A stretch of DNA of 38,021 nt, from contig CAZLYJ010000001.1 of the NCBI GenBank assembly GCA_964563845.1, positions 1-38,021 on the forward strand. Reading direction: 5' to 3'. The notes under the pieces were generated by a model. It was not told the origin of the DNA. It ran no database searches and saw only the letters and a list, made by a program, of their open reading frames with translations. This stretch comes from an uncultured Candidatus Saccharibacteria bacterium (GTDB lineage: Bacteria > Patescibacteriota > Minisyncoccia > UBA6257 > UBA9933). The position numbers and the translations under genes were made by a program. Positions 2,084-31,776 of this stretch are shown in pieces; position 1 is the stretch's first letter, and the number at the start of each line of letters is the position of its first letter.

Positions 2084-2816
2084 ATTTTTTTATCCAAGTT
2101 GATAATCTCTTTTTAACTTCAAAGGTTTTTTCGCCTTCCCAGCGTTCCGCTTTACCGGACTTTGTTTTTTCCGTCCAATAATCAATAAATTTATTTACTT
2201 CGTTTTTCGCGGTTTCTTGATTAAATCCGTGGGAGAAAAGATATTCAACGACTTTTTGCTGTTTTTCCGTGTTTCCGCAAAAGTCCCTCATTTCTTCCGC
2301 CGGCGTCAACGATCCGTTTCCTTTAAGGGGCGGGTGGGGAGATTTATCTCCCTCACTCACTATTTCTTTTACTTTCTTTTCCTTTATAGCATTGCCATCG
2401 CATTGCGTTCGCATTGCGTTCGCATTATTCCACCTAACCTTAGCAGAATTTCTTGCGCTTTTAGATTTATTTCTTCGTTCGTTTAGTCGTCGTAAAACAG
2501 CATCAGACCAAAACATTTTTTCATCATATTGAAATAACTCAAAGTCAAAAACTATTGATTTTATTAACTTTTCCTCAACTCTTAATGCGTTCGCAATGCG
2601 ACCCATATGCGACAGCAATGCGTACCCATTTTCTTCGTATAACATTTCAATTATGCACCAAAAAATTCCAATACCCGCAACTCCGACTTCACCCAGAAGC
2701 ACTGATTCTAATTTAAGATCGTGGCGGGCGTGATAATCGTGTTGAAAATAATAAGTTTCTTTCATATCATTAAACACAAAACGCTGATAACTGCCTCCTA
2801 TCGGTCTTGACGGCAT
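2058..2816 (-). CDS. Phage replication organiser, DUF4373 (Lin1244/Lin1753-like) N-terminal domain
   Basis: The N-terminal motif is YYFQHDYHARHDLKLESVL...GIGIFWCIIEMLYEENGY. The gene lies directly upstream of the helicase-like gene. The true start may be the internal ATG at 2765 (MKETYYFQHD). Confidence 0.6.
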   Translation of the reverse strand: MPSRPIGGSYQRFVFNDMKETYYFQHDYHARHDLKLESVLLGEVGVAGIGIFWCIIEMLYEENGYALLSHMGRIANALRVEEKLIKSIVFDFELFQYDEKMFWSDAVLRRLNERRNKSKSARNSAKVRWNNANAMRTQCDGNAIKEKKVKEIVSEGDKSPHPPLKGNGSLTPAEEMRDFCGNTEKQQKVVEYLFSHGFNQETAKNEVNKFIDYWTEKTKSGKAERWEGEKTFEVKKRLSTWIKKYEQFNAKK

Positions 2817-2899
2817 TTCTGCCCCGATATTTAGCGATTATCAGCGTTCTATTTTTAATGGCCGTCAAGAATTTTGGCATAAAAATTTATTTCATAATC

Positions 2900-2928
2900 A
2901 GTTTAGCATAAATTTTTGTTTATGTCAA
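2900..2928 (-). promoter_or_regulatory. Sigma70-type promoter (TTGACA-17-TAAACT)
   Basis: The minus strand reads ttgaca taaacaaaaatttatgc taaact, upstream of the replication genes. It has the same architecture as the promoter at 811-839. Confidence 0.45.
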
Positions 2929-3306
2929 TGGATTTTTTACTATAATGATTTTGATAATAAATCCTCGCATATTCTTTGTGTTTAGTATAATTTTTAGTAT
3001 AATTTTTTTTTCATAACACGATGAACAAAATCCTTTTCCTCTATGTTTATTATTTGTCTTTTTACATATTACACACTGATTATACTTTATTGCCCAAGTA
3101 GTTATTTTTTTAGCCCCTCTTTTGTTTTTTTCTAATGAATAATGGCATTTGGCGCAAACTAACATTAAATTCTCTAAATCATTGTTTTGTTTAGAAATAG
3201 GCAAGCTTGAACCTTGTCCGTCTATATGATGAATATGCATTTTTTCTTTTTTTAAAAAACAAACGCCACACTTATTTTGATATTTTTTAATCACTTTATC
3301 TCTCAT
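2920..3306 (-). CDS. HNH endonuclease with extra C-terminal zinc ribbon
   Basis: The HNH region reads CGVCF...HIHHIDG...NDLENLMLVCAKCH. A downstream CVIC...CSSC zinc ribbon follows. The start overlaps the upstream ORF stop as ATGA. Confidence 0.75.
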   Translation of the reverse strand: MRDKVIKKYQNKCGVCFLKKEKMHIHHIDGQGSSLPISKQNNDLENLMLVCAKCHYSLEKNKRGAKKITTWAIKYNQCVICKKTNNKHRGKGFCSSCYEKKIILKIILNTKNMRGFIIKIIIVKNPLT

Positions 3307-3431
3307 TCCGCCATATATGCGTGATTGGCGCCATAAAGGGTTTTTTTATAAAAATATTTAACATAACAAGCACTGCAACGCTTGCTGTTTGGCGTATGGC
3401 CTTCTCGTTTTTGACAATCAATACAAATCAT
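3303..3431 (-). CDS. 42-aa zinc-ribbon protein, probably translated from a leaderless mRNA
   Basis: Translation: MICIDCQKREGHTPNSKRCSACYVKYFYKKTLYGANHAYMAE. The track ORF (3303..3557) is trimmed to Met43 because its first 42 codons overlie promoter hexamers and DnaA boxes. Confidence 0.5.
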   Translation of the reverse strand: MICIDCQKREGHTPNSKRCSACYVKYFYKKTLYGANHAYMAE

Positions 3432-3437
3432 ATTTAT

Positions 3438-3466
3438 ATAATATATGTTATAATGGAAGATGTCAA
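3438..3466 (-). promoter_or_regulatory. Early leftward promoter (TTGACA-17-TATTAT), 6 nt from the ATG
   Basis: The minus strand reads ttgaca tcttccattataacata tattat ataaat ATG. A second weaker TTGACT-17-TAGACT lies just upstream at 3494..3466. Confidence 0.55.
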
Positions 3467-3522
3467 GTCTATTTTCTAAAAAAGATAAAGTCAAGGGGGG
3501 TGTTATACCCATTTTCGCCAAG

Positions 3523-3543
3523 TTATCCATAAAGTTATCCACA
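3523..3543 (+). promoter_or_regulatory. Tandem DnaA boxes (TTATCCATA and perfect TTATCCACA)
   Basis: ttatccata at 3523-3531 and ttatccaca at 3535-3543. They lie between the divergent promoters, 2 nt upstream of the rightward -35. Confidence 0.5.
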
Positions 3544-3545
3544 AC

Positions 3546-3573
3546 TTGACAAAGCAAAAATAAGGTTTATAAT
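3546..3573 (+). promoter_or_regulatory. Rightward promoter with perfect consensus hexamers (TTGACA-16-TATAAT)
   Basis: ttgaca aagcaaaaataaggtt tataat, followed by 8 nt and then the ATG at 3582. Confidence 0.65.
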
Positions 3574-3581
3574 AATATTAT

Positions 3582-3626
3582 ATGGCTAAAAAAGTAAAAA
3601 AATCCAATAAAAAAGCGAAGAAATAG
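3582..3626 (+). other. 14-codon Lys-rich mini-ORF (MAKKVKKSNKKAKK) inside a short promoter-to-terminator unit
   Basis: The ATG is 8 nt after the -10 hexamer. The stop codon abuts the terminator stem. It is unclear whether the unit is translated or is simply a short RNA. Confidence 0.3.
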
Positions 3627-3657
3627 GCGATCTTATTAAGATTGCTTTTTTTATTTT
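3627..3657 (+). terminator. Rho-independent terminator
   Basis: Stem gcgatctt / aagattgc (8 bp, one G-U pair) with loop att, followed by ttttttt a ttttt. Confidence 0.7.
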
Positions 3658-3703
3658 TAAAAGATGTTTAGTGATAAACAGTTTCTCGGTTAATAATCAC
3701 CGG

Positions 3704-3724
3704 AAGACGCAATAAGCGTCTTTT
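3704..3724 (+). terminator. Second hairpin (weak terminator or attenuator)
   Basis: Stem aagacgc / gcgtctt with loop aataa, followed by only a short T run. Confidence 0.3.
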
Positions 3725-3740
3725 AGAAATAAAAAACAAT

Positions 3741-4058
3741 ATGAGCGAAGAAGAAATGGAAAAATATCTAAAAAATTTAAAAATCAGTTTTTTAGAGAGT
3801 GATATTATTAAAGAAAGAATGAAATTCCGGCAATTTGGATTCATCAAGATAATGCGCCCTGATTGGATGATAATGGAAATAAAAATGTATTTTAAATATT
3901 CTTTTTTAAAAAGAGTAAGATATGCCGCGCAAATACGAATTGTTTTAATTCTAAGATTTTTCAGAGATTTAAAAATTAAAGTGCGATATTGGCGGAAATA
4001 CGGAGAATGGCTTCCCAAATCGCAAAGAAATGTGAATAATAACTATGGCGGAAAATAG
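3741..4058 (+). CDS. Hypothetical protein (105 aa), first gene of the rightward arm
   Basis: The start context aaaaacaatATG matches other plus-arm genes. The sequence is charged and low in complexity. It competes with the antisense ORF 3668..4018. Confidence 0.35.
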   Translation: MSEEEMEKYLKNLKISFLESDIIKERMKFRQFGFIKIMRPDWMIMEIKMYFKYSFLKRVRYAAQIRIVLILRFFRDLKIKVRYWRKYGEWLPKSQRNVNNNYGGK

Positions 4059-4072
4059 GAATAAAAAATAAT

Positions 4073-4357
4073 ATGGAAGCGGTCAACGCAACAGCGGAAA
4101 TTCCCATTAAATATCAAATGGAAAGGATTGAGCCGATTAAGATTGATGTTGAGTTCATTCGGCACCCCAATACGAATGAGATAATTATATTAGCCAGAAA
4201 GATAAACGAGATCGTGGAAAAAATAAACAATATGGCAGAAATTCCAGAAAGAAAAAAAGTAGAGGTAATAAATAAGAAATTGTATGTCGGAGGAAAATCA
4301 GTTGAAAAGACCACTCAAGATTATTTTTATAACCCACAGAAAATGGCAGATCAATAA
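4073..4357 (+). CDS. Hypothetical protein (94 aa)
   Basis: Track ORF, co-oriented and tightly spaced with the terminase genes. Confidence 0.5.
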   Translation: MEAVNATAEIPIKYQMERIEPIKIDVEFIRHPNTNEIIILARKINEIVEKINNMAEIPERKKVEVINKKLYVGGKSVEKTTQDYFYNPQKMADQ

Positions 4358-4362
4358 ATAAT

Positions 4363-4647
4363 ATGGCTAAATCAGGCGGAACTTGGAAAAAAGGACAAAG
4401 CGGAAACCCGAAAGGGAAACAAAAAGATCCGGCCTTGGAAGAAGCAAGGCGTTTAATCGCTGACGCCGGTTTATTGTCATTTGCGATACAAAGAGCAAAA
4501 AAGAGCGACCAAGTTTTAATTGCTTTACTGAAAAAGGCCTATCCGGATTTATCCAGCACAGAATTGAAAAGCGCGGCCGAGGGATTTAAACTGATAGTGG
4601 AACAAGGCGGTTACGCTGTAACGAAGAGTGAGACAGACATAACTTAA
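4363..4647 (+). CDS. Putative terminase small subunit (DUF5681-like N-terminus)
   Basis: The KKGQSGNPKGK motif is near the N-terminus. The gene lies directly upstream of the large terminase. Confidence 0.5.
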   Translation: MAKSGGTWKKGQSGNPKGKQKDPALEEARRLIADAGLLSFAIQRAKKSDQVLIALLKKAYPDLSSTELKSAAEGFKLIVEQGGYAVTKSETDIT

Positions 4648-4652
4648 AAAAT

Positions 4653-6014
4653 GTGAAAGAAATAAAATTTGATGATGTTTGTAATTTTTTTGACAAGCAA
4701 AGAGAAGCTTCAGAGATAGCGGACAAGTTCAAGTATGTTTTATACGGAGGTTCAGTCGGTGGCGGAAAATCCCGATGGCTGAGATGGTACCCGCTTAGAT
4801 ATTTGCTTATTCAGTATAGTTTAACGGAAATCAAAGGAATTAGAGCTGGTCTATTTTGCGAGGATTATCCCGCGCTTCACGATAGGCATATAGCCAGAAT
4901 ACAGTGGGAGTTTCCGGAGTGGCTGGGCAATTACAATAAAACCTCAAAGGAATTTATTTTAAAAGCAGAATGGGGATCGGGAGTTTTATCGCTTAGAAAC
5001 TTAGACGATGTATCACATTACCAGAGCGCGGAATTTGCCCTTGTTGCGGTAGATGAGCTGACGAAAAATAAGAAAGACACCTTTGATTTTCTTAGAACGC
5101 GTATGAGGTGGCCGGGCATATCGGATGTCCGCTTTATTGCCGGCAGTAATCCGGGAGGCATAGGACACTTTTGGGTTAAACAATTATGGATGGATAAGGT
5201 TTATGAACCGACCGAAAAAGAAAAAGACCAATTTAAATTTGTATCAAGCAGGGTTGTTGATAATCCGTATCTGGACAAAAGCTACACTGTCGCCTTAGAG
5301 GGCTTGCCGGAGAATTTAAGAAAAGCTTTTTTGGACGGAAATTGGGATGTATTTCAGGGACAATTTTTTACCGAGTGGGATAGAAATATACACACCATGC
5401 CCGCATTTGCGATACCGAGAGACTGGAAAAGATATAGAGCCATAGACCACGGCGGAGACATATCACCGACATCTTGTTTATGGTTTGCGGTTGATTATGA
5501 TAAAAGAGTCTATTGTTATCGGGAGTATCACGCCATAGATAAATTAGCCACTAATCACGCAAAAAGAATAAAGGAGTTAAGCGGAGACGAAACAATAAGC
5601 GCTACTTACGCCGATCCGTCAATGTGGATTAAGAGCAGTACCGATGGCCGCGCAGTCTCTGACTTATATGCCAGCGAGGGCGTAAATCTGGATAGAGCCA
5701 ATAATGACAGGATTAACGGGTGGATGGTTGTGCGGGAATTTTTTGCCAAAAAAGAGGGAATGACGGCTCCTCGTTTACAAATATTTGAGAACTGTTATAA
5801 TTTAATTAGAACAATACCGCTGCAGATTCACGACGAGAAAAAAGCTGAAGATTTGGATACAACCGGAGACGATCACGATGTTGATGCTTTAAGATATTTC
5901 TTGGCTTCTTGGTTTGGCTGGCCGAGAATGAAAAATAAACAGCCGGAACCCGGCTCCTTTGAATGGGAAATGGAACAAAACAGGAAAAGAAGAGAAGCCA
6001 AAGAATATGAATAA
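4653..6014 (+). CDS. terL: Terminase large subunit
   Basis: Walker A LYGGSVGGGKS and Walker B LVAVDELT. Nuclease-domain acidic residues IDHGGD. C-terminal GDDHDVDALRY motif. The start is GTG at 4653, embedded in atgtga (an ATG-TGA start-stop pair sits one frame over). Confidence 0.9.
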   Translation: MKEIKFDDVCNFFDKQREASEIADKFKYVLYGGSVGGGKSRWLRWYPLRYLLIQYSLTEIKGIRAGLFCEDYPALHDRHIARIQWEFPEWLGNYNKTSKEFILKAEWGSGVLSLRNLDDVSHYQSAEFALVAVDELTKNKKDTFDFLRTRMRWPGISDVRFIAGSNPGGIGHFWVKQLWMDKVYEPTEKEKDQFKFVSSRVVDNPYLDKSYTVALEGLPENLRKAFLDGNWDVFQGQFFTEWDRNIHTMPAFAIPRDWKRYRAIDHGGDISPTSCLWFAVDYDKRVYCYREYHAIDKLATNHAKRIKELSGDETISATYADPSMWIKSSTDGRAVSDLYASEGVNLDRANNDRINGWMVVREFFAKKEGMTAPRLQIFENCYNLIRTIPLQIHDEKKAEDLDTTGDDHDVDALRYFLASWFGWPRMKNKQPEPGSFEWEMEQNRKRREAKEYE

Positions 6015-6189
6015 GGTTAAAATATATTATGTGCGATGGCTGGAGAATGATGCTTTTTTTCTTTCCTTAGAATCTGCAAACCAACATATACGAGAAAGAA
6101 TAAGTATGGAAAAATGGGATGTTTTTGAAAGGAAAAGAAAAGTAAAAATATTCGCGTTTGAAGCGGAAGAATTGAAAGAATATGAATAA
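6007..6189 (+). CDS. Hypothetical 60-aa protein inserted between terminase and portal
   Basis: The track ORF is trimmed to the ATG at 6007 (MNKVKIYYVRW...). It is flanked by a perfect 15-nt direct repeat aaagaatatgaataa (6000-6014 and 6175-6189). Confidence 0.45.
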   Translation: MNKVKIYYVRWLENDAFFLSLESANQHIRERISMEKWDVFERKRKVKIFAFEAEELKEYE

Positions 6190-6196
6190 ATAAATT

Positions 6197-7930
6197 ATGT
6201 CAAAAAAGAGTAAAAAAGAGGAGATAAAGGAAGAAAAATTGGCCGACACCATACGGGATCGCATTGCCGTTTCCATTAAGTTTATGAAAGACTGGAAAGC
6301 AAGCGTGGACACGGCCAATCTGTATTGGACGGGCAAATCGCGTCCCAAGAGCATATCGCGCGAGAACTATTATTCCGTCAATTATATCTACGCCATCATC
6401 AAGGATTCTATTGCGAGGATGTACTACCGCAATCCGCAAATCAATGTGGAACCCGTGAACGGCAAAGATCCCGCCATATTCACGAACGCCAAGAATGCGC
6501 AGCTTGTTTTAAACTGGCAAGCGCAAAAGAAAGAATATCGGTTAAGAGACCATATCAAATTGGCTTTACTGGATTGGCAAAGAACGGGAATGGGCGTAGT
6601 CTTTACCGGATGGACAACGCTTTTGGAACAGGAAAAAGACGAAATTAAAAGGATTCAAAAAGACCAGCCCGACATTAAGAGAATCCACCCAAAGCATATT
6701 TATCTTGCCCCCGGCTTTACCAGAGACAAAATAGACTATGTGGTGTTGGAATATCAAGTGCCTCTCAAAGAAGTGAAGAATAATAAGAATTTTAATCAGA
6801 AGGTTTTAGACGGATTCAATATCACAAGTTATTTGGACAAAGAATGGCGCGATGACGGCAATGGAGGAACAAGAGTTAAAGAAACGGAAGATATGGCCAG
6901 AGTGACGCTGTATCACTACTATGACGCGGAGCATTGGTTTGTAATGCTAAAAGGCGCGGACGATCCTTTAATGGAAAAAGAGAATCCGTATACGGCGGTA
7001 TTCGGAGAAGATAATCCCCTCCCTATTACAATCATTTGGGGAGACGACGATTTGGCCTCACCCTTTCCAATCTCAAAGATTGATCCGATAAAGGATGTGG
7101 TCAGGGAACTGTCAATGATCCGAAGCCAGCAGGTCAATCATCGCAAGAGATTCAATCGCAAGGCTTTATATGACAGCAATTCCATTGACGAAACAAAAAT
7201 AGAAAAACTAAAAAATCCCGATGACGGCACTATGATTGGCATAGCCTTAGAAAGCGGCAAGACATTAGATGGCGCGATTTATCCCATACCGGAACAGCCC
7301 TTACAGTATCCATTTCAAATTGAGCCGATGGTCAAAGAGGATATATATGTCATTTCCGGCACGACGCCCACGGCTCTAACCGGCAAGTCGGCCAATCCCA
7401 CCTTAGGACAAGATGAGCTATCAGCCAAGAGCGCGCAAAACCGAGAAGAAGAAGATCAATCCCAAGTGGAGCAATTCGTGGAAGCGATATATCAAAGGCT
7501 TTTACAGCTTGATCAAACCTATCTGCAACAGCCCGTAGCAATGCAAGTATCGGGCTCCATAGATCATCAATGGATGGAGTTGACAAGCACGGATATTGCG
7601 GGCGGGATGACGCTCAAAGTGATATCTGGTTCTATGGTGAGAGAAACCGATGAGGTAGTTCGCAAACAAGCTATGGATGTGTTAAACTTAGTGGGAATGT
7701 TACCGATTGGACAGCCACTTATTCCTGAAATTATTCAGAAGATACTTGACACCTTTCCGATGTTTTCCGATATAGCGGAAAAGATAAGAAGGATGATGGC
7801 GCAACCGCAACCGCCCATTTTGCCTCCTCAAATGGGAGAGACAGGCAATGGGCCGATGAATCAAAGTATATTGAATCAAAACGCGCCAACAGCCAGCGGA
7901 TTATCAAATGGCGCGAATAAAATAACTTAA
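6197..7930 (+). CDS. Portal protein
   Basis: 577-aa ORF in the canonical position after terminase and before the scaffold-like and capsid genes. The call rests on size and position only. Confidence 0.7.
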   Translation: MSKKSKKEEIKEEKLADTIRDRIAVSIKFMKDWKASVDTANLYWTGKSRPKSISRENYYSVNYIYAIIKDSIARMYYRNPQINVEPVNGKDPAIFTNAKNAQLVLNWQAQKKEYRLRDHIKLALLDWQRTGMGVVFTGWTTLLEQEKDEIKRIQKDQPDIKRIHPKHIYLAPGFTRDKIDYVVLEYQVPLKEVKNNKNFNQKVLDGFNITSYLDKEWRDDGNGGTRVKETEDMARVTLYHYYDAEHWFVMLKGADDPLMEKENPYTAVFGEDNPLPITIIWGDDDLASPFPISKIDPIKDVVRELSMIRSQQVNHRKRFNRKALYDSNSIDETKIEKLKNPDDGTMIGIALESGKTLDGAIYPIPEQPLQYPFQIEPMVKEDIYVISGTTPTALTGKSANPTLGQDELSAKSAQNREEEDQSQVEQFVEAIYQRLLQLDQTYLQQPVAMQVSGSIDHQWMELTSTDIAGGMTLKVISGSMVRETDEVVRKQAMDVLNLVGMLPIGQPLIPEIIQKILDTFPMFSDIAEKIRRMMAQPQPPILPPQMGETGNGPMNQSILNQNAPTASGLSNGANKIT

Positions 7931-7934
7931 TAAT

Positions 7935-8255
7935 ATGTCAGAACAAAATTTATATCTAACGCTCACCGATAAAGAACTGCCCGATCTCGCTCAATGGAAA
8001 GCGGGCAAGGAGTATGAAGTATTAGCCAGAATTAAAATGGTAAAAATGACCAAAGAGATGAACGAAAAAGGCAAAGAACTGAAAGCGGATTTTAGCATTG
8101 TGAATATTCGGGATGTGGAAGAAGCCGATATGAAGTATCGCTCTAAATTCCAAAAAGTGGCCAAAGAGGCGATGAAAGATTCACTCGTGAAAAATAAGCC
8201 AGAAGAAAAGAATGAAACTTATGTGACGCTAAGAACCGAACCTTATGTTAGCTAA
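7935..8255 (+). CDS. Hypothetical head-module protein (106 aa, Lys/Glu-rich)
   Basis: Track ORF between the portal and the scaffold-like gene. Confidence 0.5.
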   Translation: MSEQNLYLTLTDKELPDLAQWKAGKEYEVLARIKMVKMTKEMNEKGKELKADFSIVNIRDVEEADMKYRSKFQKVAKEAMKDSLVKNKPEEKNETYVTLRTEPYVS

Positions 8256-8538
8256 GAGATATGAGGACGCGAAAAAGGAGCAGGTTAATTTCAAGAATAA
8301 ATATTGTTGGGGATGCGGAGATTCAAGATATACGGTGGCCAGCCGATACTGCAAAAGGTGCGACGCTAAGATTGAAGAAAAGATACGAATGGACTCAAAA
8401 AGCGGACGGGCGAAAAACCAGAATTACGGATATGACAGGGGAATGAATTACGGCCTTGGCATTTATATTGAAAGCAAAGATGAATTTAAAAAAGGCGTTA
8501 AATACGCGGAAACCGAAGGAACATTTTTAAAAGGTTAG
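8245..8538 (+). CDS. Zinc-ribbon protein (97 aa)
   Basis: CWGC...CKRC motif. It overlaps the preceding gene by 11 nt. Confidence 0.5.
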   Translation: MLAKRYEDAKKEQVNFKNKYCWGCGDSRYTVASRYCKRCDAKIEEKIRMDSKSGRAKNQNYGYDRGMNYGLGIYIESKDEFKKGVKYAETEGTFLKG

Positions 8539-8607
8539 TTCGCCGCAAGGAAGAAGCGAGCCAATCTTTTATCAGCGGCTCAATTATCAACTCAACCGCA
8601 AAATTTT

Positions 8608-9354
8608 ATGCCAGACGAAGAAATCGGGCAAACCGAAGGAAGCTTTGTTCCTGATGAAGGGCAAACAACGGGTTCCGAAAGCGCGGCAACCGAGGCAGTA
8701 GAGGGTAATCCGCCCGCAGAGGCGAATCCTCAAGCGCCGGAGATTAAACCGCAATTTGGCCAATTTGGAGAGGACGCCAACAAACTTTACGAGGGCTACA
8801 AAGCTCTTGAGAGCAAACTCGGCAATTGGAACGAAACCGAGGAATTAGCGAATAAGTATCGGGAGCTTCAAGCGAATCCGCCAGTGGCGGAAACGCCCGA
8901 AGAGGTGCCTGACTTCCAAGCAATGACGCAAGAAGAACAGCTTGCGTATTTACGCGCTGACGCGCGAAAAGAAGCCGAGAAAGCCGTTCAAGAAGCGATC
9001 GCCAAAGAAGTCAAACCGCTTCAACAAGATGTTTATACGCGCCAAGCTAATGAAGCTGCGGCTAAAATCAAGGAAAAATATCCTGATATTGAGCAGCATA
9101 AAGACGCGATAAACAAGTTTCTTGATGATAATCCCGCTATTGCCGCTAACCTTAATCCGGAAGTATTTGACATAGCCTATCGTTATGTCACTTATGAAAA
9201 GGCGAAAGAACTTGGGGCCAAAGACGCGATAGCCAAACTATCGCAAAAAGCCGCCAAGAATACGCCTCAACCGATGGGCAGCGTTCCAGTCACCTCCACA
9301 ACGCCAAAATCATTTATGGAAGCATTAAGACAAGCGGAAGACGAGGTAAGTTAA
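8608..9354 (+). CDS. Putative scaffolding protein
   Basis: 248-aa acidic protein rich in Ala, Glu and Lys, with a helical-looking sequence. It lies directly upstream of the capsid gene. Confidence 0.6.
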   Translation: MPDEEIGQTEGSFVPDEGQTTGSESAATEAVEGNPPAEANPQAPEIKPQFGQFGEDANKLYEGYKALESKLGNWNETEELANKYRELQANPPVAETPEEVPDFQAMTQEEQLAYLRADARKEAEKAVQEAIAKEVKPLQQDVYTRQANEAAAKIKEKYPDIEQHKDAINKFLDDNPAIAANLNPEVFDIAYRYVTYEKAKELGAKDAIAKLSQKAAKNTPQPMGSVPVTSTTPKSFMEALRQAEDEVS

Positions 9355-9370
9355 ATAGAATTAAAATTAT

Positions 9371-10321
9371 ATGGCAACAGGAAATACGAATTTTGACGCC
9401 ATAGCCTCAAGCACCTTGCAGAAATATAAACCAACCTTATACGACAATGTGTTCAAAAGAACCCCTTTGTTTTATAAGTTAATGGAAAAAGGCAGTAAAG
9501 ATGTACTGGACGGCGGACGATCAATCGTCGTGCCGGTCATTATGTCCGCTAACAGCACTGCGGCAGGGTATTCGGGCTATGGGACGATCGATATTACTCC
9601 GCAATCAAATGAAAGCGCGGCCGAATTCGAGTGGTGTCAGTACGCCGCTTCAATCGCGATCTCCGGACTGGAAGAAAGAAAAAATGCGGATTCCAAAACG
9701 CAAATCTATAAACTTTTGGAAGCAAAAACAAAAAATGCGGAAGATTCTCTCCGCCGAAAAATGGACATTGCCGCCTTTTCAAATGCCAATGGGTCAACCA
9801 GCGCTTTGAATGGTTTGCAAACATTGGTGGACGCCACCTCAACGGTCGGCGGAATCAATAGAACCAATGACGCTTTTTGGCAAGCGGTAGTCAACGCTTC
9901 AATCGGTTCATTCGCTACGAATGGATTGGACAAAATGCGCTCTACCTACAATTCTTGCACCGATGAAGGCCAAGACGCGCCAGACTTCGGAATCACCACG
10001 CAAGCCGTCTTTGAGTACTATGAGAAATCATTGCAGACTCAACAGCGCTTTACCGACAGCAAAACCGCTGACGGAGGATTTGAAAATCTCAAATTCAAAG
10101 GAATGGTTTTGATGTTTGATTCCAACTGCGCTTCGGGAGAAATGTATATGTTAAATTCCAACTGGTTGAAATTGGCCGTCCATAAAGACGCTGATTTGGA
10201 AATCGGAGCTTTCGTAGTTCCGGCCAACCAAGACGCAAAGGTCGCCAAAATTCTGTTTCAGGGTAATTTGATTGTTCTCCAATCTCGCCGCCAAGGCAAG
10301 ATCACGGGAATTACGGCCTGA
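9371..10321 (+). CDS. Major capsid protein
   Basis: 316-aa ORF after the scaffold-like gene. Its size and position fit an HK97-fold capsid protein. The fold assignment is an inference. Confidence 0.7.
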   Translation: MATGNTNFDAIASSTLQKYKPTLYDNVFKRTPLFYKLMEKGSKDVLDGGRSIVVPVIMSANSTAAGYSGYGTIDITPQSNESAAEFEWCQYAASIAISGLEERKNADSKTQIYKLLEAKTKNAEDSLRRKMDIAAFSNANGSTSALNGLQTLVDATSTVGGINRTNDAFWQAVVNASIGSFATNGLDKMRSTYNSCTDEGQDAPDFGITTQAVFEYYEKSLQTQQRFTDSKTADGGFENLKFKGMVLMFDSNCASGEMYMLNSNWLKLAVHKDADLEIGAFVVPANQDAKVAKILFQGNLIVLQSRRQGKITGITA

Positions 10322-10330: not shown

Positions 10331-10359
10331 TTGACATATTTCTTAGGAAGGAGTATAAT
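10331..10359 (+). promoter_or_regulatory. Perfect consensus sigma70 promoter (TTGACA-17-TATAAT) serving the HNH gene
   Basis: ttgaca tatttcttaggaaggag tataat begins 10 nt after the capsid stop codon. Confidence 0.7.
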
Positions 10360-10391
10360 TTTTATAGATTATTTTATAAAATATTATACTT

Positions 10392-10964
10392 ATGCTTTCA
10401 AAAGAAATATTACAGAAAAAATATTGGAACGAACGATTAAGTCTTAAAAAGATTGCTCAAGAAGAGCAAGTATCTCCAAAAACAGTTGCACGGTGGATGG
10501 AAAGTTGGAACATTGAAAGAAGGCCATTTAGTACGAAAGGTCTTCAAACAAGACTTGGAGCAATACTAACCGAAGAAACAAAAAAGAAGATAGCTCAAAA
10601 ACATTTAGGAAAAAGGTTATCTCCAGAACATCGGAAGAAGGTAGTAGCCAATCTTAATAAGTATCGTTGGGGGAATAAAAATCCCGCATGGACAGGTGGT
10701 ATAGTTGTTAGTGATAATGGATATATTCTTATTAAAATGAGAAATCATCCAAGAGCCAATAAAAATGGATATATAGGATCACACATTTTACTTCTTGAAC
10801 AAAAGATTGGTAGATACTTAGAAAAAGATGAAGTCGCTCATCACAAGAACGAAAAGCGTTGGGATAATCGGTTAGAGAATCTTCAAGTTATGACTTTCAA
10901 TAAACATTCTAAATATCATGCAATAAAAAGATACAAAGCAAATAAAGGACTAAATCATTCTTAA
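10392..10964 (+). CDS. Free-standing HNH homing endonuclease (HNH_3-like)
   Basis: Motif GYIGSHILLLEQKIGRYLEKDEVAHHKNEKRWDNRLENLQVMTFNKH. The gene is visibly more AT-rich than the flanking structural genes and has its own promoter. Confidence 0.8.
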   Translation: MLSKEILQKKYWNERLSLKKIAQEEQVSPKTVARWMESWNIERRPFSTKGLQTRLGAILTEETKKKIAQKHLGKRLSPEHRKKVVANLNKYRWGNKNPAWTGGIVVSDNGYILIKMRNHPRANKNGYIGSHILLLEQKIGRYLEKDEVAHHKNEKRWDNRLENLQVMTFNKHSKYHAIKRYKANKGLNHS

Positions 10965-14459: not shown

Positions 14460-14978
14460 CTAAGGAACGAATTGACCGGATTTGTTACGCTTAAAGCGTT
14501 TAACTTGTTCAGCTTTGTGAATATGGTTATGTTCAAATGTTGTAAGTACAACAAGATTCTCAATTCGATTGTCATTTTTAATGCCATTGATATGATGAAC
14601 ATGTTGTTTATGTTCAAGTTTTCGACTAAGATGCATTTCCATGACAAAACGATGTTCGCCAACCCAATGAGTTCCGTTCCAAATTTCAATGTAACCAGAT
14701 TGTTGATTTCGACGAGAACCAATAGAACGCCTACTGTCTTTCATTGCTTCTCCACCCTTCCATTGAGGATTAAGTTCGCCATTTTGAGTGTTTATGTTTT
14801 TAACAGAAGCGCATTTAGCAGAGCAATACAACTGTTTTCTATCGGCTATAAAGAGTTCTTTGCATTCTTTGCATATATATTCTTTATAGGGTGCGGGAAA
14901 ACGACCAGTTCCAACAGTATGCCAAGTTCCGTCTCCGTGATCTATCCATCCTCTTTGTTTCGCAATAGAGATTTTCAT
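14460..14978 (-). CDS. Free-standing HNH homing endonuclease (HNH_3-like), antisense to the late arm
   Basis: Motif GEHRFVMEMHLSRKLEHKQHVHHINGIKNDNRIENLVVLTTFEHNHIH, with an N-terminal Cys4. It is the only sizeable minus-strand gene between 3.6 and 31.3 kb. Confidence 0.8.
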   Translation of the reverse strand: MKISIAKQRGWIDHGDGTWHTVGTGRFPAPYKEYICKECKELFIADRKQLYCSAKCASVKNINTQNGELNPQWKGGEAMKDSRRSIGSRRNQQSGYIEIWNGTHWVGEHRFVMEMHLSRKLEHKQHVHHINGIKNDNRIENLVVLTTFEHNHIHKAEQVKRFKRNKSGQFVP

Positions 14979-15010
14979 AGTATTTTATTAATTAAGAGAG
15001 TAATACTTAT

Positions 15011-15039
15011 ATGATAGAGGAATCTTTGAGACCTGTCAA
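15011..15039 (-). promoter_or_regulatory. Promoter of the antisense HNH gene (TTGACA-17-TATCAT)
   Basis: The minus strand reads ttgaca ggtctcaaagattcctc tatcat. The -10 hexamer is the reverse complement of the ATGATA that starts the plus-strand glycosyltransferase gene at 15011. Confidence 0.55.
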
Positions 15040-16174: not shown

Positions 16175-16375
16175 ATGACGACTTACGAATTGAAGCTGGA
16201 TGTCTGCCTTAACGGATGCAAGAAAAAGTTGTATACTGTATTTATCAACGAAGACACCGGAGATATTTTGATGATTTGCCCCAAGTGCAACATAAAGTAC
16301 AAAAGTAAGCTCAAATTTATCTCGCGCGAAAAAGTTTTGCAAGTTATGCGAAACAACCGAAAGGAAGACGGTTAA
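16175..16375 (+). CDS. Zinc-ribbon protein (66 aa)
   Basis: C..GC...CPKC motif. An SD aaggag lies 8 nt upstream. The stop codon sits in the terminator loop. Confidence 0.5.
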   Translation: MTTYELKLDVCLNGCKKKLYTVFINEDTGDILMICPKCNIKYKSKLKFISREKVLQVMRNNRKEDG

Positions 16376-16391
16376 TGTCTTCCTTTTTTTT
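16363..16391 (+). terminator. Rho-independent terminator
   Basis: Stem ggaagac / gtcttcc with loop ggttaat, followed by eight T. Confidence 0.8.
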
Positions 16392-25155: not shown

Positions 25156-28100
25156 ATGCCGTCTATTTTACAGATGATTGCCAATGCCGGTAAAAAGATA
25201 GGGAAAATTCCCGCGCAAAACGCGGCGACTCTCTTGAATATTGCCAAAAAGAATGTAAAACAAACGGGCAAAGGAATAATGGCGGTGTCAAAAGTCGGAC
25301 AAAAAATTCTTCCTTTTGGAAAAACCGTCTTAATTGAAGCGCCAGCCAGAGCGGCCGCTTCAATCGCTTTAGATACAAAAAAACAGCCATTATTGATTCC
25401 TCAATCGCCGGCGGAAAAATTGTTTTTTGGAAAAGAACCAGTAGAGGCATTAAGCAAAAGAATCAAAGAGTCTCCTCAAAAAGCTGAAGCATTGGGTATC
25501 CCAAAAAAAACCGCTCAATTTGTCGGCCCGATGGCGGTTGCCGGATTTACCGTACTTGATCTATTGCCGGCGGGCGGAGCAAAGAAGAAAGCGGTGCAAA
25601 TCGTTAAGCCGTCAATTGCCAAAAATATTATTGAACAAGGAGCGAAACAAGTGGAAAGAATCGCGCCAAAAACCGCCCAAGCGATGAGAGCGATTGATGT
25701 ATCTAAGAAAGCCTTTTCTTCTTTAAGTATTGCAAGAAGCAGTAAAAACGATTTCTTGGATTTAGCGACAAAATCGTATATACCTAAAAGAAAAATAATT
25801 CACGACAAAATTATTTCCTCTGCGATAAAGAACTCCCCAAGCGTTGAACATCCAACCATTACGATCGTTACGGGGCATTCTGCTTCTGGAAAAAGCAGAT
25901 TCGCTAAAGATGTACTGGAAAAAGAGCGTCCAAGCGCGGTTGTTATTGACCCCGATAAAATTAAAATGCAACTTCCGGAAAAAGACAAAATATATCTTCA
26001 CGATGAATCAGGAGATATTGCGACACGATTATTCAAAGAAGCAATGGGGGGTAAAATGGGGGGTAAAAAGGATATTATTTTTATTGGAAATATTAAAAAT
26101 AATGAAAAATATAAAACAATGCTTGACAATTTTCAAAAAGCAGGCTATAATATGGATATTAGAGCCGTACAAGTAGATAGACGCACCGCTTTACAGCGTG
26201 GAATAAAAAGATCGCTCAAACAACCGGTACCGGCAATAGAAGTTGCAAAAAGTTATGACAATTATAAACAAGGACTGGAATTATTAAAAAAGTATTCTAA
26301 TATAAAAGTATATGAAGGAACAAAAGATTTTACAAAACAAGTTGGAAGAACAGAATTCCAAACAACCCAAATACGGAAGTCTGGAATGGGAGGATTCAGT
26401 TTGGGAGGACGCGGCTTACCGAGGGACTCTTCCGGAACAATTGAATCAACCTTCTTCCAAGACGGATCAAAAATAAAAGATGGTTCTTTAAGTATTGGTA
26501 AAACCATAAAAGAACGGGGATTTTTTAAAACTGTAACGGAATCCAAACAGACACCTTCAGAGCTAAAAGGACTGCTTAAAGATACGGGCGCGGGAATTTC
26601 CACAAAGTCTAAATTTTACGATGTGGCTACCGATAAAGCGGCATTAGACGCGGCCAAAACGAAAATCAATCAAAATATTGATGAAGCGTTTTCTTTTGTC
26701 ATATCGGAAAAAAATCCCTCCAAAGAACACATTGCCACCGGTATTGAATTGATGAAAAGATTTTCCGGCGAAGGCAACCAAATAAGGGCGGCTGATATTT
26801 TTGAACATTTAGCCGAACAATTGACTAAATCCGGTCAAACAATTCAGGCCGCTTCCCTTTGGAATAAACTTACTCCTGAGGGACAAATATTAACGCTAAC
26901 CAGAAAAATTAACAGTTATAATAAAAAAATACAAGATACGGGCGGGCTTTTTGGCTTGGGCAAAAAACTTCCCGGATTATCCAAAGAACAAATCAGAGGA
27001 TTATTGGATGAAGCCAGAAAAATAGCTGAAATTCCCGATGAATTAGCCAGAAAAAAAGCGGAGTATTTTTTTCAAGATAAACTCGCCTCATTTATTCCTT
27101 CATCGGGTTTAAAAAAAGCAGTAACGGTTTGGAAAGCCGGTTTATTGACGGGATTAAAAACGAGCGGACTAAATATCGGATCAAATATTTCTCATAGTAC
27201 CCTTTTAGAACGGGTTAAAGATATTCCAAGCGCGGGAATTGATATTATTGCCTCATTATTTACCAAAAAACGAACCTTGCCGGCATTTGCCGGAGGATAC
27301 AGAAAAGGACTTAAAGAAGGAGCCGAAAAAGGCTGGGAATATGTCGCTACCGGATTTGATGAACGAAATATCGGAGCAAAACTTGATTTGCAAAAAGTTA
27401 ATTTTTCCAAAGCCCCCATTGGCCGATTTCTTCAAAAATATACCAATACTGTCTTTCGCGTTATTGGCGGAGAAGATCAGCCGTTCTTTTATGGTTCTTT
27501 AAGCCGCGCAATTTTTTCGCAAGTCAAAGCTAATGGAATGAATCAGGGTTTAAAGGGTACAACCTTGAAAGAATTTATAGAAAACGGCATTAAAAATCCT
27601 TCCGAAGATATACTGAAAACCGCGTTAAAAGAAGCAGAAATAGCCGTCTTTGCCAATAAAACAAAATTGGGACAATTAGGCCGCGGTATTCAAAAAATGG
27701 GCGGCGGTCTTGGAGAGTTTGCCGTTCCTTTTTCTCGCACGCCATCAGCCGTAGCAATGCAAGTAATCAATTATAGTCCGATTGGATTCATAAAAACCGT
27801 GGCGGAAAATATCGGTAAGGGCAAATTTAATCAAAGAGCTTTTTCACAAGGAATAGGACGCGCCATTACCGGCACGACTATTTTAGGCTTAGGCGCCCAT
27901 TTAATGAATAAAAACAAAATAACGCTTAATTATCCGACGACCGATAGAGAACGGCGGCAATGGGAATTAGAAGGGAAACAAGCCAATAGCATTAAAATCG
28001 GCAATAAGTGGCGCTCCGTCGCTTCTTTTGGGCCAGCCGGATTCGCTTTGTTAATCGGCGGACATATTCAAAAAGCCTATAATGATACAGGAAGCGCAGT

Positions 28101-28839
28101 TAAAGGAATGGGTCAAATTATCGGCGGCGCGAGCAAATCTTTTACTGAGCAAACATTTTTAAAAGGAATAAATCAAATAACGGAAATATTAAATGATCCG
28201 GTGCGCAATGGTCCGGCTTGGTTAAAGAATTTTGTCGCTTCGTTTATCCCCACACTTTCAAAAGATATAGCCGTTTCTCTTGATCCTTATCAAAGAAAAA
28301 CAGAAAATATTCCGGAAGCGGCGGCGGCGCGTATTCCTATTTTACGAACTTCCGTATTGGAAAATAAACCGAAAATAGATGTGCTGGGCGAACCGCTAAA
28401 AAGACAACAAAGCGCGATTGCTTCGCTTCTTGATCCGACCAGACCGTCAACTATCCAGTCAACTTCCGTTATCAATGAATTAAATCGTTTAACGGAAGCG
28501 GGTTATAAAGTAACTCCGACTCAATTTGGCGAAGAAAAAAAATTTGATATTTTAACCGATGAACAAAATATTAACTTGCAAATGGCGGCGGGACAAAACT
28601 TAAATAAGGTTTTGGGAAAAATAATAATCAGTGATTGGTGGCAAACCGCCGATGATGAAATGAAAGAAAAAGCGATAAATAAATACACGGAAGACGCAAG
28701 ATTTTACGCACGAATGGGAATGCTGAATTTTCTCTTGTCAGATATAAAAGACCAAAATCAAAAAATATTGAAATTAAAAGAACTCATCAAAGACGGATTC
28801 GTCAACAAAGAAATGTATAATAAATTTATGCTAAAATAA
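25156..28839 (+). CDS. Giant internal virion / ejection protein with embedded zeta-toxin-like P-loop kinase domain
   Basis: 1227 aa. Residues about 205-390 (nt about 25770-26325) read PTITIVTGHSASGKSRFAKDVL...AVVIDPDKIKMQLPE...IIFIGNIK...KAGYNMDIRAVQVDRRTALQRGIKR. This matches the zeta/PezT-family pattern of a Walker A, then IDxD..r..xP, and later GY.v.l..v.v...a..R...R. Confidence 0.6.
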   Translation: MPSILQMIANAGKKIGKIPAQNAATLLNIAKKNVKQTGKGIMAVSKVGQKILPFGKTVLIEAPARAAASIALDTKKQPLLIPQSPAEKLFFGKEPVEALSKRIKESPQKAEALGIPKKTAQFVGPMAVAGFTVLDLLPAGGAKKKAVQIVKPSIAKNIIEQGAKQVERIAPKTAQAMRAIDVSKKAFSSLSIARSSKNDFLDLATKSYIPKRKIIHDKIISSAIKNSPSVEHPTITIVTGHSASGKSRFAKDVLEKERPSAVVIDPDKIKMQLPEKDKIYLHDESGDIATRLFKEAMGGKMGGKKDIIFIGNIKNNEKYKTMLDNFQKAGYNMDIRAVQVDRRTALQRGIKRSLKQPVPAIEVAKSYDNYKQGLELLKKYSNIKVYEGTKDFTKQVGRTEFQTTQIRKSGMGGFSLGGRGLPRDSSGTIESTFFQDGSKIKDGSLSIGKTIKERGFFKTVTESKQTPSELKGLLKDTGAGISTKSKFYDVATDKAALDAAKTKINQNIDEAFSFVISEKNPSKEHIATGIELMKRFSGEGNQIRAADIFEHLAEQLTKSGQTIQAASLWNKLTPEGQILTLTRKINSYNKKIQDTGGLFGLGKKLPGLSKEQIRGLLDEARKIAEIPDELARKKAEYFFQDKLASFIPSSGLKKAVTVWKAGLLTGLKTSGLNIGSNISHSTLLERVKDIPSAGIDIIASLFTKKRTLPAFAGGYRKGLKEGAEKGWEYVATGFDERNIGAKLDLQKVNFSKAPIGRFLQKYTNTVFRVIGGEDQPFFYGSLSRAIFSQVKANGMNQGLKGTTLKEFIENGIKNPSEDILKTALKEAEIAVFANKTKLGQLGRGIQKMGGGLGEFAVPFSRTPSAVAMQVINYSPIGFIKTVAENIGKGKFNQRAFSQGIGRAITGTTILGLGAHLMNKNKITLNYPTTDRERRQWELEGKQANSIKIGNKWRSVASFGPAGFALLIGGHIQKAYNDTGSAVKGMGQIIGGASKSFTEQTFLKGINQITEILNDPVRNGPAWLKNFVASFIPTLSKDIAVSLDPYQRKTENIPEAAAARIPILRTSVLENKPKIDVLGEPLKRQQSAIASLLDPTRPSTIQSTSVINELNRLTEAGYKVTPTQFGEEKKFDILTDEQNINLQMAAGQNLNKVLGKIIISDWWQTADDEMKEKAINKYTEDARFYARMGMLNFLLSDIKDQNQKILKLKELIKDGFVNKEMYNKFMLK
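26123..26151 (+). promoter_or_regulatory. Perfect consensus promoter hexamers (TTGACA-17-TATAAT) inside the giant gene
   Basis: ttgaca attttcaaaaagcaggc tataat, in the sense orientation, coding LDNFQKAGYN. Confidence 0.4.
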
Positions 28840-28996: not shown

Positions 28997-29290
28997 ATGG
29001 AAAATCAACCGATAGATAAAACTCAAATCATCATTCACGGCATTTTGGCCGCCATAGGCGGAATAGTCCGAGTATTGGCGGAAAATAAGAAATATTCAGT
29101 CTGGTATTATTTGTCGCAGACGGTTATTTCTTCTTTCTCCGGTGTGATTGTCGGTCTGCTGTTAAAAGAATTTATGAACAGCGAATATTTGATAATGTCA
29201 TTTAGCGGAATGGCGGGATATTCCTCATCCGGTATTTTGCACATACTCTCCGTAAAATTGCAGAATTATTTAAAAGATAAACCTTTGTGA
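28997..29290 (+). CDS. Putative holin (multi-pass membrane protein)
   Basis: 97 aa with three hydrophobic segments (GILAAIGGIVRVL, VISSFSGVIVGLLL, FSGMAGYSSSGILHIL) and a charged C-terminus. Confidence 0.45.
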   Translation: MENQPIDKTQIIIHGILAAIGGIVRVLAENKKYSVWYYLSQTVISSFSGVIVGLLLKEFMNSEYLIMSFSGMAGYSSSGILHILSVKLQNYLKDKPL

Positions 29291-29291
29291 T

Positions 29292-29399
29292 ATGAATATC
29301 CCGCCTGTGGATAAACCCCTTGATTTCTTCACATTAACTATTATACTTATTCTATTGGGATTGATTGTCGTTTCTTTGATTCAATTTTTAGGAAATTAA
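29292..29399 (+). CDS. 35-aa membrane peptide (not in the ORF track)
   Basis: Translation: MNIPPVDKPLDFFTLTIILILLGLIVVSLIQFLGN. It starts 1 nt after the previous stop codon. Confidence 0.35.
   Translation: MNIPPVDKPLDFFTLTIILILLGLIVVSLIQFLGN
29306..29314 (-). promoter_or_regulatory. Perfect DnaA box (TGTGGATAA on the plus strand)
   Basis: Exact reverse complement of TTATCCACA. Confidence 0.35.
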
Positions 29400-29649: not shown

Positions 29650-29978
29650 AAAGTAAACTAGAAATACGGCCATTAAGCGTCAATGCTTGCTGGCAAGGAC
29701 GCCGCTTTAAAACTCCGGAATATAAAACCTATGAAGAAGAAATGCTTTTGCGTCTGCCAAAAGAGAAAATGATAAAAGGCAATGTTGAGGTATATATTAT
29801 TTTTTTCTTTAAATATCCAAAAAAAAGAGATGTGGATAATTGTATTAAACCGATTTTAGATATTTTTGTAAAAAAAGGATATATAGAAGACGATCGTTTC
29901 ATCACACATCTGGATATTTCAAAAGAAAAAAGCGAGAAAGAAGGCTTTGCTTTTGAAATTATTGAAGAAATTTTATGA
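29646..29978 (+). CDS. rusA: RusA-family Holliday junction resolvase
   Basis: RPLSVNACWQGRRFKTPEYKTYEEE...KRDVDNCIKPILDIFVKKGYIEDDRFI matches the RusA pattern, including the D.DN..K...D and DD motifs. Confidence 0.75.
   Translation: MKSKLEIRPLSVNACWQGRRFKTPEYKTYEEEMLLRLPKEKMIKGNVEVYIIFFFKYPKKRDVDNCIKPILDIFVKKGYIEDDRFITHLDISKEKSEKEGFAFEIIEEIL
29831..29839 (-). promoter_or_regulatory. Perfect DnaA box (TGTGGATAA on the plus strand), inside rusA
   Basis: Exact reverse complement of TTATCCACA. It falls on coding sequence (DVDN), so it may be incidental. Confidence 0.25.
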
Positions 29979-31358: not shown

Positions 31359-31396
31359 AAAGCGGCCTCTTTTTCTTTTAGAAGCCGCTTTATTTT
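31359..31396. terminator. Bidirectional hairpin terminator at the convergence of the two arms
   Basis: Stem aaagcggc / gccgcttt (8 bp, with 3 more pairs after one mismatch). T-rich tracts follow on both strands. Confidence 0.6.
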
Positions 31397-31623: not shown

Positions 31624-31776
31624 AAATTTATATGAATTTAAATAATATTTTAACTATTGCAATGTCCGTGAGTATTGAAAATAAAATACAAAAAATAATC
31701 ATAGACACGGTTGGAAATCCAATATCTTTTTTTTCAATATTTTGCCTTTCCCAAAGAAATAAAGTAATTGAAGTTA

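Follow-up and report, generated by a model that had tools for sequence, protein, structure and literature searches.

The window analysed here is a stretch of 38,021 nucleotides (nt) on contig CAZLYJ010000001.1 that carries a phage genome, and our subject is the control region at 3438-3740 from which its two gene arms diverge, in particular a short unit of promoter, small open reading frame (ORF) and terminator that stands ahead of the packaging and virion genes. The phage DNA originates from groundwater metagenomes (Rifle PRJNA268031 and others). The first 54 nt of the window are identical to its last 54 nt and it is collinear with a 37,951-bp scaffold, which indicates a complete circular map of about 37,967 bp. 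Our analysis supports the reading of 3438-3740 as a hub of divergent control, from which a replication arm runs leftward and a packaging and virion arm rightward. The two arms are composed as follows.

3741-31342, plus strand: plus (late) arm with p105, p94a, a DUF5681 small-terminase-like protein, TerL (4653-6014), the portal protein and the virion genes
3431 through the map origin to 31402, minus strand: minus (early) arm with replication genes, an M23 peptidase and many small ORFs

The timing of late-gene expression is little known outside the lambdoid and a few other model phages, especially in uncultivated phages that lack recognizable regulators. The leader described here is compact and conserved and combines a consensus promoter with a DnaA box, a short ORF and a terminator, which makes the question of timing testable with simple reporters.

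Elements of the divergent control region

The following elements were identified between and immediately beside the two arms.

3303-3431, minus strand: first leftward gene, encoding a 42-amino-acid (aa) CxxC...CxxC zinc-ribbon-like protein
3438-3466, minus strand: leftward promoter P_L, sigma-70-type TTGACA-17-TATTAT, scoring 11/12
3520-3543, plus strand: tandem 12-nt repeat AAGTTATCCAYA with two DnaA boxes
3546-3573, plus strand: rightward promoter P_R, consensus TTGACA-16-TATAAT, scoring 12/12, predicted start at about 3580
3582-3626, plus strand: 14-codon Lys-rich ORF MAKKVKKSNKKAKK, ATG at 3582, stop codon TAG at 3624-3626
3625-3658, plus strand: intrinsic terminator T1, stem 3625-3634/3638-3647, loop AUU, tail U7AU5 (3646-3658)
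3647-3736, plus strand: long hairpin, uninterrupted 24-bp helix 3647-3670/3713-3736, -29 kcal/mol, z = -7.5
3702-3726, plus strand: hairpin H2, GGAAGACGC-AAUAA-GCGUCUUUU, -11.3 kcal/mol
3741-4058, plus strand: p105, an ORFan that opens the late arm and has gene-like codon usage

An initial annotation, made from the sequence alone, had placed two promoters here, and both are present as it described them. The rightward perfect-hexamer promoter P_R belongs to the sites that score 12/12, which number four in the genome against an estimated 0.06 or so expected. P_L ends exactly 6 nt before the ATG at 3431, and its predicted +1 is the A of this ATG, so the mRNA would be leaderless. Gene callers lengthen the 42-aa gene to 84 aa by using a TTG start at 3557, with the result that it overlaps both promoters; its zinc-ribbon-like product had no family match in Pfam or PHROGs. 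In contig L001, which differs from the window by only four single-nucleotide polymorphisms over 16 kb, the substitution at 3464 (8812 in L001) turns the -35 hexamer of P_L from TTGACA into TTTACA and thus constitutes a natural promoter-down variant.

The 14-codon Lys-rich mini-ORF at 3582-3626 was likewise recovered. Its ATG lies 8 nt past the -10 hexamer of P_R and is therefore near-leaderless, a start that is plausible because two real genes of this phage begin in a similar manner, one behind P_L (6 nt between -10 and ATG) and one behind the promoter at 33386 (9 nt). Shine-Dalgarno sequences are missing at most genes, which have A-rich leaders instead. The codons of the mini-ORF are favoured ones, and its stop codon overlaps the base of the T1 stem (3625-3647). 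We also considered the mini-ORF as a duplicated N-terminus of the terS or portal gene, and rejected this origin since the similarity comprises only the low-complexity string 'MAKK'.

The mini-ORF leads directly into T1, which had been described as a strong terminator at 3627-3657. A terminator is indeed present, but it is only of moderate strength: the 8-bp core stem (3627-3645) with its 3-nt loop contains three G-C pairs and one G.U pair, and the fold reaches -11.2 kcal/mol (z = -5.5) only with the A-U extension pairs counted. T1 is situated 45-75 nt from the predicted start site. The possibility that it acts mainly on the minus strand was dismissed, because the U-run on that strand is about 10 nt away from the stem. 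Well-formed plus-strand terminators at sensible operon positions are restricted to three places, namely T1 in the leader, a site at 16.4 kb and the convergent end of the arms.

Beyond T1 we found a long hairpin that had been overlooked initially. It pairs the U-tract of T1 (left arm) with the A-rich leader of p105 (right arm) and ends 4 nt before the ATG at 3741. The second hairpin formerly placed at 3704-3724 does exist (H2, 3702-3726), but it overlaps and competes with the 24-bp helix, and the two structures are mutually exclusive. The long hairpin contains three non-Watson-Crick pairs and T1 two, all of them G.U in the plus sense. With the corresponding structures of a related phage (see below) added, T1 and the long hairpin have seven wobble pairs in all, each of them G.U when read on the plus strand, and this strand specificity points to a function in the plus-strand RNA.

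A homologue search with p105 returned only p105 itself. An alternative gene on the minus strand at 3668-4018 was rejected, as codon usage favours p105 on the plus strand. The promoter scan detected no canonical plus-strand sigma-70 promoter between T1 and the ATG at 3741. Transcripts from P_R must therefore pass T1 to supply the terminase, portal and head genes.

The tandem DnaA boxes that had been noted at 3523-3543 were confirmed. The box TTATCCATA at 3523-3531 has one mismatch and the box TTATCCACA at 3535-3543 is perfect; relative to P_R their centres fall at about -53 and -41, and 2 nt separate the second box from the -35 hexamer. Perfect TTATCCACA boxes occur five times in the genome versus 0.34 expected, a number that none of 100 shuffled sequences reached. 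The boxes thus stand beside a promoter and exceed chance, as in a DnaA-regulated promoter, and they would make initiation at P_R sensitive to host DnaA.

The other perfect boxes are located at 553-561 and 649-657 in the early arm and at 29306-29314 and 29831-29839 in the late arm. The first pair lies in the largely non-coding stretch 466-780, in the same orientation, flanking a terminator-like hairpin (611-631) followed by a T-run; this stretch, which has no Rfam match, is a candidate replication origin or small-RNA locus. The second pair is on the minus strand in a low-GC part of the late arm, with one of its boxes in the gap after the gene 28997-29290. A 17-mer pattern joining the DnaA box to the -35 hexamer matched 16 times in viral contigs, mostly in coding sequence and never in related phages. 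In one unrelated viral contig (L055, 5400-5460, minus strand) the identical 17-mer TTATCCACAACTTGACA forms part of a promoter, with TATAAT 16 nt further on, an ATG 10 nt past this -10 hexamer, a DNA methylase gene downstream and a further DnaA box nearby. We examined this match as a bacterial dnaA promoter and discarded that assignment, as it is a phage promoter upstream of a methylase. DnaA boxes that abut phage promoters may represent a recurring design.

Conservation of the leader in a diverged relative

The only diverged relative available for the unit (contigs L068 and L069) was reached through members of the TerL cluster. Its identity to the window is 87% for TerL, 79% for terS and 87% for the portal protein at the amino acid level, and 78-80% for coding DNA. 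The leftward module of L068 is non-homologous to that of the window and encodes a Phage_rep_O protein and a 490-aa protein. Despite this exchange, promoter, Lys-rich ORF and terminator are all kept in L068, so that the search for conservation suggested by the initial annotation had a positive outcome. The homologous promoter (2369-2396) is again TTGACA-16-TATAAT, with a score of 12/12 and the same 16-nt spacer. The only intergenic block of the window that can be aligned to L068 is 3588-3658 (78.7%, E = 3e-8); its conservation is comparable to that of coding DNA, and the surroundings have diverged beyond alignment.

The Lys-rich ORF of L068, MGQRTAKKPKKTNKKKK, is collinear and in frame with AKKVKKSNKKAKK of the window, and in L068 this frame ends in AKKPKKTNKKKK directly before the stop codon. 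Changes between window and L068 comprise the synonymous pairs GCT/GCA and AAA/AAG, the replacements S/T and V/P, one codon deleted in frame, and TAG to TAA at the stop. In L068 the conserved start ATGGCT is followed by an insertion bearing a DnaA box that breaks the frame, and a second ATG at 2438 restores it. The stop codon (2489-2491) lies 3 nt before the core stem of the terminator, which occupies 2494-2525 and consists of GGCAGUC-UUGA-GAUUGCU followed by U8AU6. The stems of the two phages differ only by GA to AG opposite UU, with pairing kept. Candidates for a sigma-dependent pause element like that of the lambda late promoter are a -10-like TATTAT that overlaps the predicted start in the window (3576-3581, -4 to +2) and a TATAAA at about +6 to +11 in L068, although AT-rich sequence yields such matches easily.

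The insertion in L068 carries the single perfect DnaA box of this 5.4-kb contig (2421-2429, minus strand), less than 40 nt from the homologous promoter. This box is downstream of the -10 hexamer, at about +19 to +27, whereas those of the window are upstream, at about -41 and -53. An association of box and promoter that is kept at different positions argues for a regulatory link between host DnaA and the promoter and against a fixed architectural role.

Since the unit is retained next to a non-homologous replication module, it belongs to the late operon and is under selection. That it stays with the packaging genes, together with the strand-specific wobble pairs, characterizes it as a late-operon leader and not as part of an origin. 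The small ORF and terminator travel with the packaging module when replication modules are exchanged, which is useful for the annotation of similar metagenomic phages.

Sequences downstream of T1 are less constant. The long hairpin has only a weak counterpart in L068 (11+3 bp), which the centroid structure lacks. p105 is missing at this position in L068 and in a further relative, L070, and is therefore a cassette insertion: the L068 leader runs into a short p94a homologue, and in L070 the same 'hairpin-AGRAAUAAAA-ATG' junction precedes a different gene of 86 aa. This arrangement of a small GC hairpin, AGRAAUAAAA and ATG is common to gene starts in the packaging region (window 3741-4058; L068 2580-2605; L070 1-30 and 290-325), and the varying cassettes behind it suggest a recombination hotspot for small accessory ORFs. 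On the other side of the L068 hub (2198-2286, minus strand), a bidirectional terminator of the form A7-stem-U6GU3 (-44.6 kcal/mol, z = -5.2) sits between the leftward promoter and the rep_O ATG, 5 nt before the latter, so that both divergent operons of L068 start with a promoter followed by a terminator.

Other searches gave no informative relatives. Rfam 15 had no hits at gathering thresholds in the whole window, and a permissive search of 3300-3900 produced only sub-threshold chance matches of at most 30 bits. No match was returned by blastn of 2800-6100 against 50,697 phage records, and no further relatives by TerL-based locus searches in viral, metagenome and genome collections. The T1 pattern had no match in viral contigs and 57 low-complexity chance matches in metagenome contigs. 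Among TerL proteins, the cluster that comes next (L009) has no more than 55% identity and is organized differently upstream; we set it aside together with L049-L051 (TerL 47-52% identical), as their upstream layouts (NinG/HNH-terS, a phage sigma factor, and ParB-methylase) differ from that of the window. Relatives of the replication initiator (L011-L048) proved to be unrelated mosaic phages with no other gene in common. Twelve contigs with an identical TerL represent the same phage without informative variation in the region, and one contig with a variant rep gene (L128) ends short of it.

Late-gene control and competing explanations

How much of the late arm depends on passage through T1 is determined by the promoters and terminators downstream.

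5774-5801, plus strand: promoter scoring 11/12 with an extended -10 (TG), from the promoter scan
10331-10359, plus strand: second 12/12 promoter, in the intergenic gap before the HNH_3 homing-endonuclease gene 10392-10964
16359-16391, plus strand: internal late-arm terminator T2, 12-bp stem (16359-16387) plus U8, -15.3 kcal/mol
26123-26151, plus strand: promoter scoring 12/12, from the promoter scan
31359-31391, both strands: bidirectional terminator T3 where the arms converge, 17 nt past the last plus-strand stop codon, -14.7 kcal/mol

It had been stated that the plus arm contains no other head promoter and that T1 gates all 28 kb of it. The three additional promoters contradict the first statement, and the second fails because the 12/12 promoter at 10331 re-enters the operon, so that a strict T1 gate covers at most 3741-10321. 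The second strong terminator proposed for 16363-16391 is confirmed as T2 and is stronger than T1. Its loop holds the stop codon of a 66-aa gene (16373-16375), and a ribosome terminating there would cover the 5' arm of the hairpin. T2 consequently provides no independent argument for processive antitermination.

The layout had been likened to the pR'-6S RNA-tR' arrangement of lambda, in which late genes are expressed by antitermination under the protein Q. The succession of promoter, short transcript and terminator stands and is conserved in L068, but a Q mechanism is not supported. By prediction, a strong sigma-70 late promoter and an intrinsic terminator lie within about 200 nt of each other. 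As in lambda, a strong host-type promoter yields a short transcript that meets an intrinsic terminator ahead of the morphogenesis genes, and late expression needs read-through. Unlike lambda, there is no Q-family gene here, the promoter stands back-to-back with an early promoter and not downstream of a Q gene, and the leader of about 45 nt contains a translatable ORF that abuts the terminator. Nor do lysis and morphogenesis genes both follow the gated promoter, as those for lysis belong to the minus arm. The Pfam scan covered every ORF of the early arm, and the PHROGs scan every one except three short ORFs. In agreement with the statement that no Q-like gene is recognizable, these scans matched no early ORF to Q, N, a sigma factor or another regulator. 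The genes flanking P_R on the opposite strand encode the 42-aa zinc-ribbon-like protein and an HNH protein. The early arm does encode several small Cys-rich proteins, which had been named as candidate antiterminators. The other candidate, a cis-acting antiterminator RNA, for which the put type of HK022 is the model, was not borne out: there is no structured RNA between the start site and T1, the stretch 3580-3624 being A-rich and unstructured and the fold of 3580-3657 showing T1 only (z = -1.2).

We consider it most likely that the unit is a promoter-proximal attenuator before the late genes. In both phages the predicted short ORF ends at or over the terminator, as in leader-peptide attenuators; this abutment, which had escaped the initial annotation, suggests a self-contained, ribosome-dependent alternative to a Q-like factor. 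Such a cis-acting alternative would fit the conserved geometry at least as well as the lambda Q mechanism does. The folds contained no antiterminator pairing that would compete with the arms of T1, which leaves only direct occlusion of the pyrBI type. In attenuators that work by ribosome occlusion, such as the E. coli pyrBI leader and terminators close to a stop codon (Li et al. 2016, PMC4824070), a short leader ORF likewise ends at or inside the terminator, and a closely following ribosome blocks the hairpin so that no antiterminator hairpin is necessary. When the distance from a stop codon to the terminator tR2 behind it was shortened from 28 to 5 bp in E. coli, termination fell from about 90% to less than 10% (PMC4824070). 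The present case differs from the pyrBI type in that the operon is a late operon of a phage, with no obvious metabolic signal, and in that the ORF of 14-17 codons begins at or near the 5' end, which makes it doubtful that a ribosome would catch up without a pause site.

As to the efficiency of termination, translation of the ORF, the effect of DnaA and the mode of read-through, we infer the following course of events. P_R, flanked by host DnaA boxes, would start a leader of about 160 nt for the packaging and head operon, made up of the near-leaderless Lys-rich ORF, T1 at its stop codon, and the long hairpin that would sequester the A-rich initiation region of p105. T1 would stop many transcripts, leaving an RNA of about 70-75 nt, and the fraction reading through would set late-gene expression. 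T1 would be intrinsically partial, and any ribosome at the end of the short ORF would mask it by occupying the 5' arm of its hairpin, a route to read-through that would require no protein of the lambda Q type. This self-contained attenuator, with a partial T1 modulated by translation of the ORF and initiation possibly affected by DnaA, is the account that we tentatively prefer.

Several points weigh against this account. The conservation statistics are weak, as they involve two independent sequences only, and the reading frame is supported by a single indel and a small number of substitutions, all within an A-rich tract of which two of the three frames are open in L068. The L068 ORF is not leaderless but has a leader of about 35 nt. 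T1 is no further than 45-75 nt from the start site, and no pause hairpin is visible; in E. coli, terminators within the first 100 bp of a coding region are efficient because ribosomes have not yet caught up (PMC4824070). Host transcription may be uncoupled from translation ('runaway'), the modest T1 stem may simply be leaky, and the A-richness of the leader could serve solely as the A-tract partner of the U-tract. An effect of DnaA on P_R is a candidate feature only.

Documented systems offer partial likenesses. Leaderless short-ORF attenuators are known from mycobacteria (Canestrari et al. 2020, bioRxiv 10.1101/834739), where a leaderless short ORF rich in one residue is the first cistron and RNA structure hides the next initiation region; those attenuators act on translation, through ribosome stalling at Cys codons that responds to cysteine supply. 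Here, by contrast, there are a transcription terminator and Lys codons, and the copy in the relative is not leaderless. The central control region of phi29 (A2b/A2c early, A3 late) shares the back-to-back early and late promoters within about 200 bp and the convergence of the arms on a bidirectional terminator. In phi29, however, the early protein p4 activates a weak late promoter, whereas P_R is a perfect consensus followed by a terminator, so that control here would be negative or would act after initiation. With DnaA-controlled promoters (bacterial dnaA and mioC; lambda pR) the region has in common a consensus box beside or inside the promoter, the difference being that here the box accompanies a late (packaging) promoter and varies in position between the two phages. 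Lambda pR is stimulated by host DnaA, and some bacterial promoters are repressed by it. A late-gene switch without any regulator encoded by the phage, in which DnaA represses P_R at single copy of the genome and is titrated by the replicated boxes (at least five per genome), with ribosome masking deciding passage through T1 and T2, appears improbable to us; if true, it would tie late expression directly to replication and to the translational capacity of the cell.

In our ranking the self-contained attenuator is followed by a trans-acting antiterminator, then by an independent small peptide or RNA gene, a replication origin and, last, chance. Factor-dependent antitermination, a generalized version of the model in the initial annotation that we regard as unlikely, would have P_R constitutive and nearly all transcripts stopping at T1 until an early phage protein, or a host factor modified by the phage, confers terminator resistance. 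It accounts for the conserved order of promoter, short transcript, terminator and late genes and for T2 inside the late arm, and more than 20 early ORFs without assigned function, several of the Cys4 type, could encode the factor; moreover, the replication operon of L068 also starts with a promoter and a very strong terminator (-44.6 kcal/mol), which may suggest a general strategy of the group. However, no early ORF matches Q, N, a sigma factor or another regulator, and beside the unit, which is itself conserved, the two phages have early genes that are not homologous. The T2 hairpin contains the upstream stop codon, so translation alone may suppress it (PMC4824070), the promoter at 10331 bypasses T1, and both the conserved frame of the ORF and the abutment of its stop codon to the hairpin are left unexplained. 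As an independent small gene, P_R, the ORF and T1 would form a strongly expressed unit in which the polycationic peptide of 14-17 aa or the RNA of about 70 nt matters in itself; a leaky T1 at the gene end would keep the short RNA well in excess of late mRNA, and no regulated switch would be involved. To this we assign a low probability. The consensus promoter, the short ORF with favoured codons, the terminator directly past its stop, the moderate stability of T1, and the conserved cationic character with a C-terminal KK[S/T]NKK..KK all agree with it; yet neither an Rfam match nor a known peptide family was found, A-rich sequence of low complexity encodes Lys in any case, neither the N-terminus nor the start context is conserved, and the late genes would still require read-through from P_R, so that the attenuator role remains.

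An origin of replication is very doubtful, even though the GC content next to the tandem DnaA boxes is 21-27%, neighbouring genes encode a DnaD-like initiator (Lin1244_N) and a DnaB-like helicase, and lambda replication is described in the literature as dependent on pR transcription and DnaA. On this explanation the boxes, the AT-rich inverted repeats and the short transcript would form a DnaA-dependent origin using transcriptional activation or an RNA primer. The unit nevertheless keeps its place beside the packaging genes where a replication module of the lambda O type has been substituted, and so is not initiator-specific; an origin of that type is normally inside the O gene. In addition, the wobble pairs indicate a function at the RNA level, the perfect boxes at 553 and 649 in a non-coding stretch are an equally good candidate, and GC skew merely mirrors gene orientation. 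That consensus-like motifs came together by chance in AT-rich intergenic DNA is hardly credible. Weak promoter- and terminator-like matches are common in such a genome, but 12/12 promoters occur far more often than expected, no shuffled sequence has as many DnaA boxes, and conservation of the unit in L068/L069, at 78-80% identity of coding DNA, effectively refutes this explanation. To return to the attenuator, the conserved terminator-gated late leader is probably a real one, and a lambda-like way of working is not supported. The mechanism could turn out to be a new family of antiterminators or a design without regulator that responds to host DnaA and to the state of the ribosomes.

Other features of the phage genome

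Integrase, repressor, sigma factor and Q- or N-type proteins were not detectable with Pfam or PHROGs; judging from the missing integrase and repressor matches, the phage is probably virulent. Some homologues of its TerL carry labels of Patescibacteria metagenome-assembled genomes. Besides the 42-aa zinc-ribbon-like protein, the minus arm encodes an HNH protein, the Lin1244_N/DnaD-like replication initiator, the DnaB-like helicase, NinB, an SSB-like protein, two HNH_3 endonucleases and the M23 peptidase. The putative lysis genes, all on this arm, are the M23 peptidase (32348-32932) and small hydrophobic proteins (31628-31780 and 37249-37404). The presence of lysis genes at the distal end of the 'early' minus arm (31402-32932) makes it unlikely that this arm is uniformly early.

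The free-standing HNH and HNH_3 genes each have their own near-consensus sigma-70 promoter, scoring 12/12 at 10331 and 33386 and 11/12 at 15039 and 34308. The cassettes span 10331-10964, 14460-15039, 32936-33386 and 33619-34308, and the promoter at 33386 is near-leaderless, with the ATG 9 nt past the -10 hexamer. The cassette with the gene at 10392 is not found at the corresponding place in L009. Own promoters and this absence give the cassettes the appearance of mobile, self-expressed homing endonucleases. The 12/12 promoter at 26123 lies inside a gene of 1227 aa (25156-28839), with an in-frame ATG directly past its -10 hexamer (26123-26154); it may serve from within the gene to express a shorter product or the genes that follow, or it may be a coincidental match.

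Three independent partial assemblies (L007, L005 and L008) begin at 3479, 3545 and 3701, respectively, that is, with three breaks inside one control region of 220 bp. Low coverage or hairpins in DNA of 21-30% GC are the likely cause, and the differing break positions argue against a fixed genome terminus. Finally, TerL of L070 (632-2914) is 760 aa long and contains an intein (PF14890 Intein_splicing), being otherwise 86% identical to TerL of the window.

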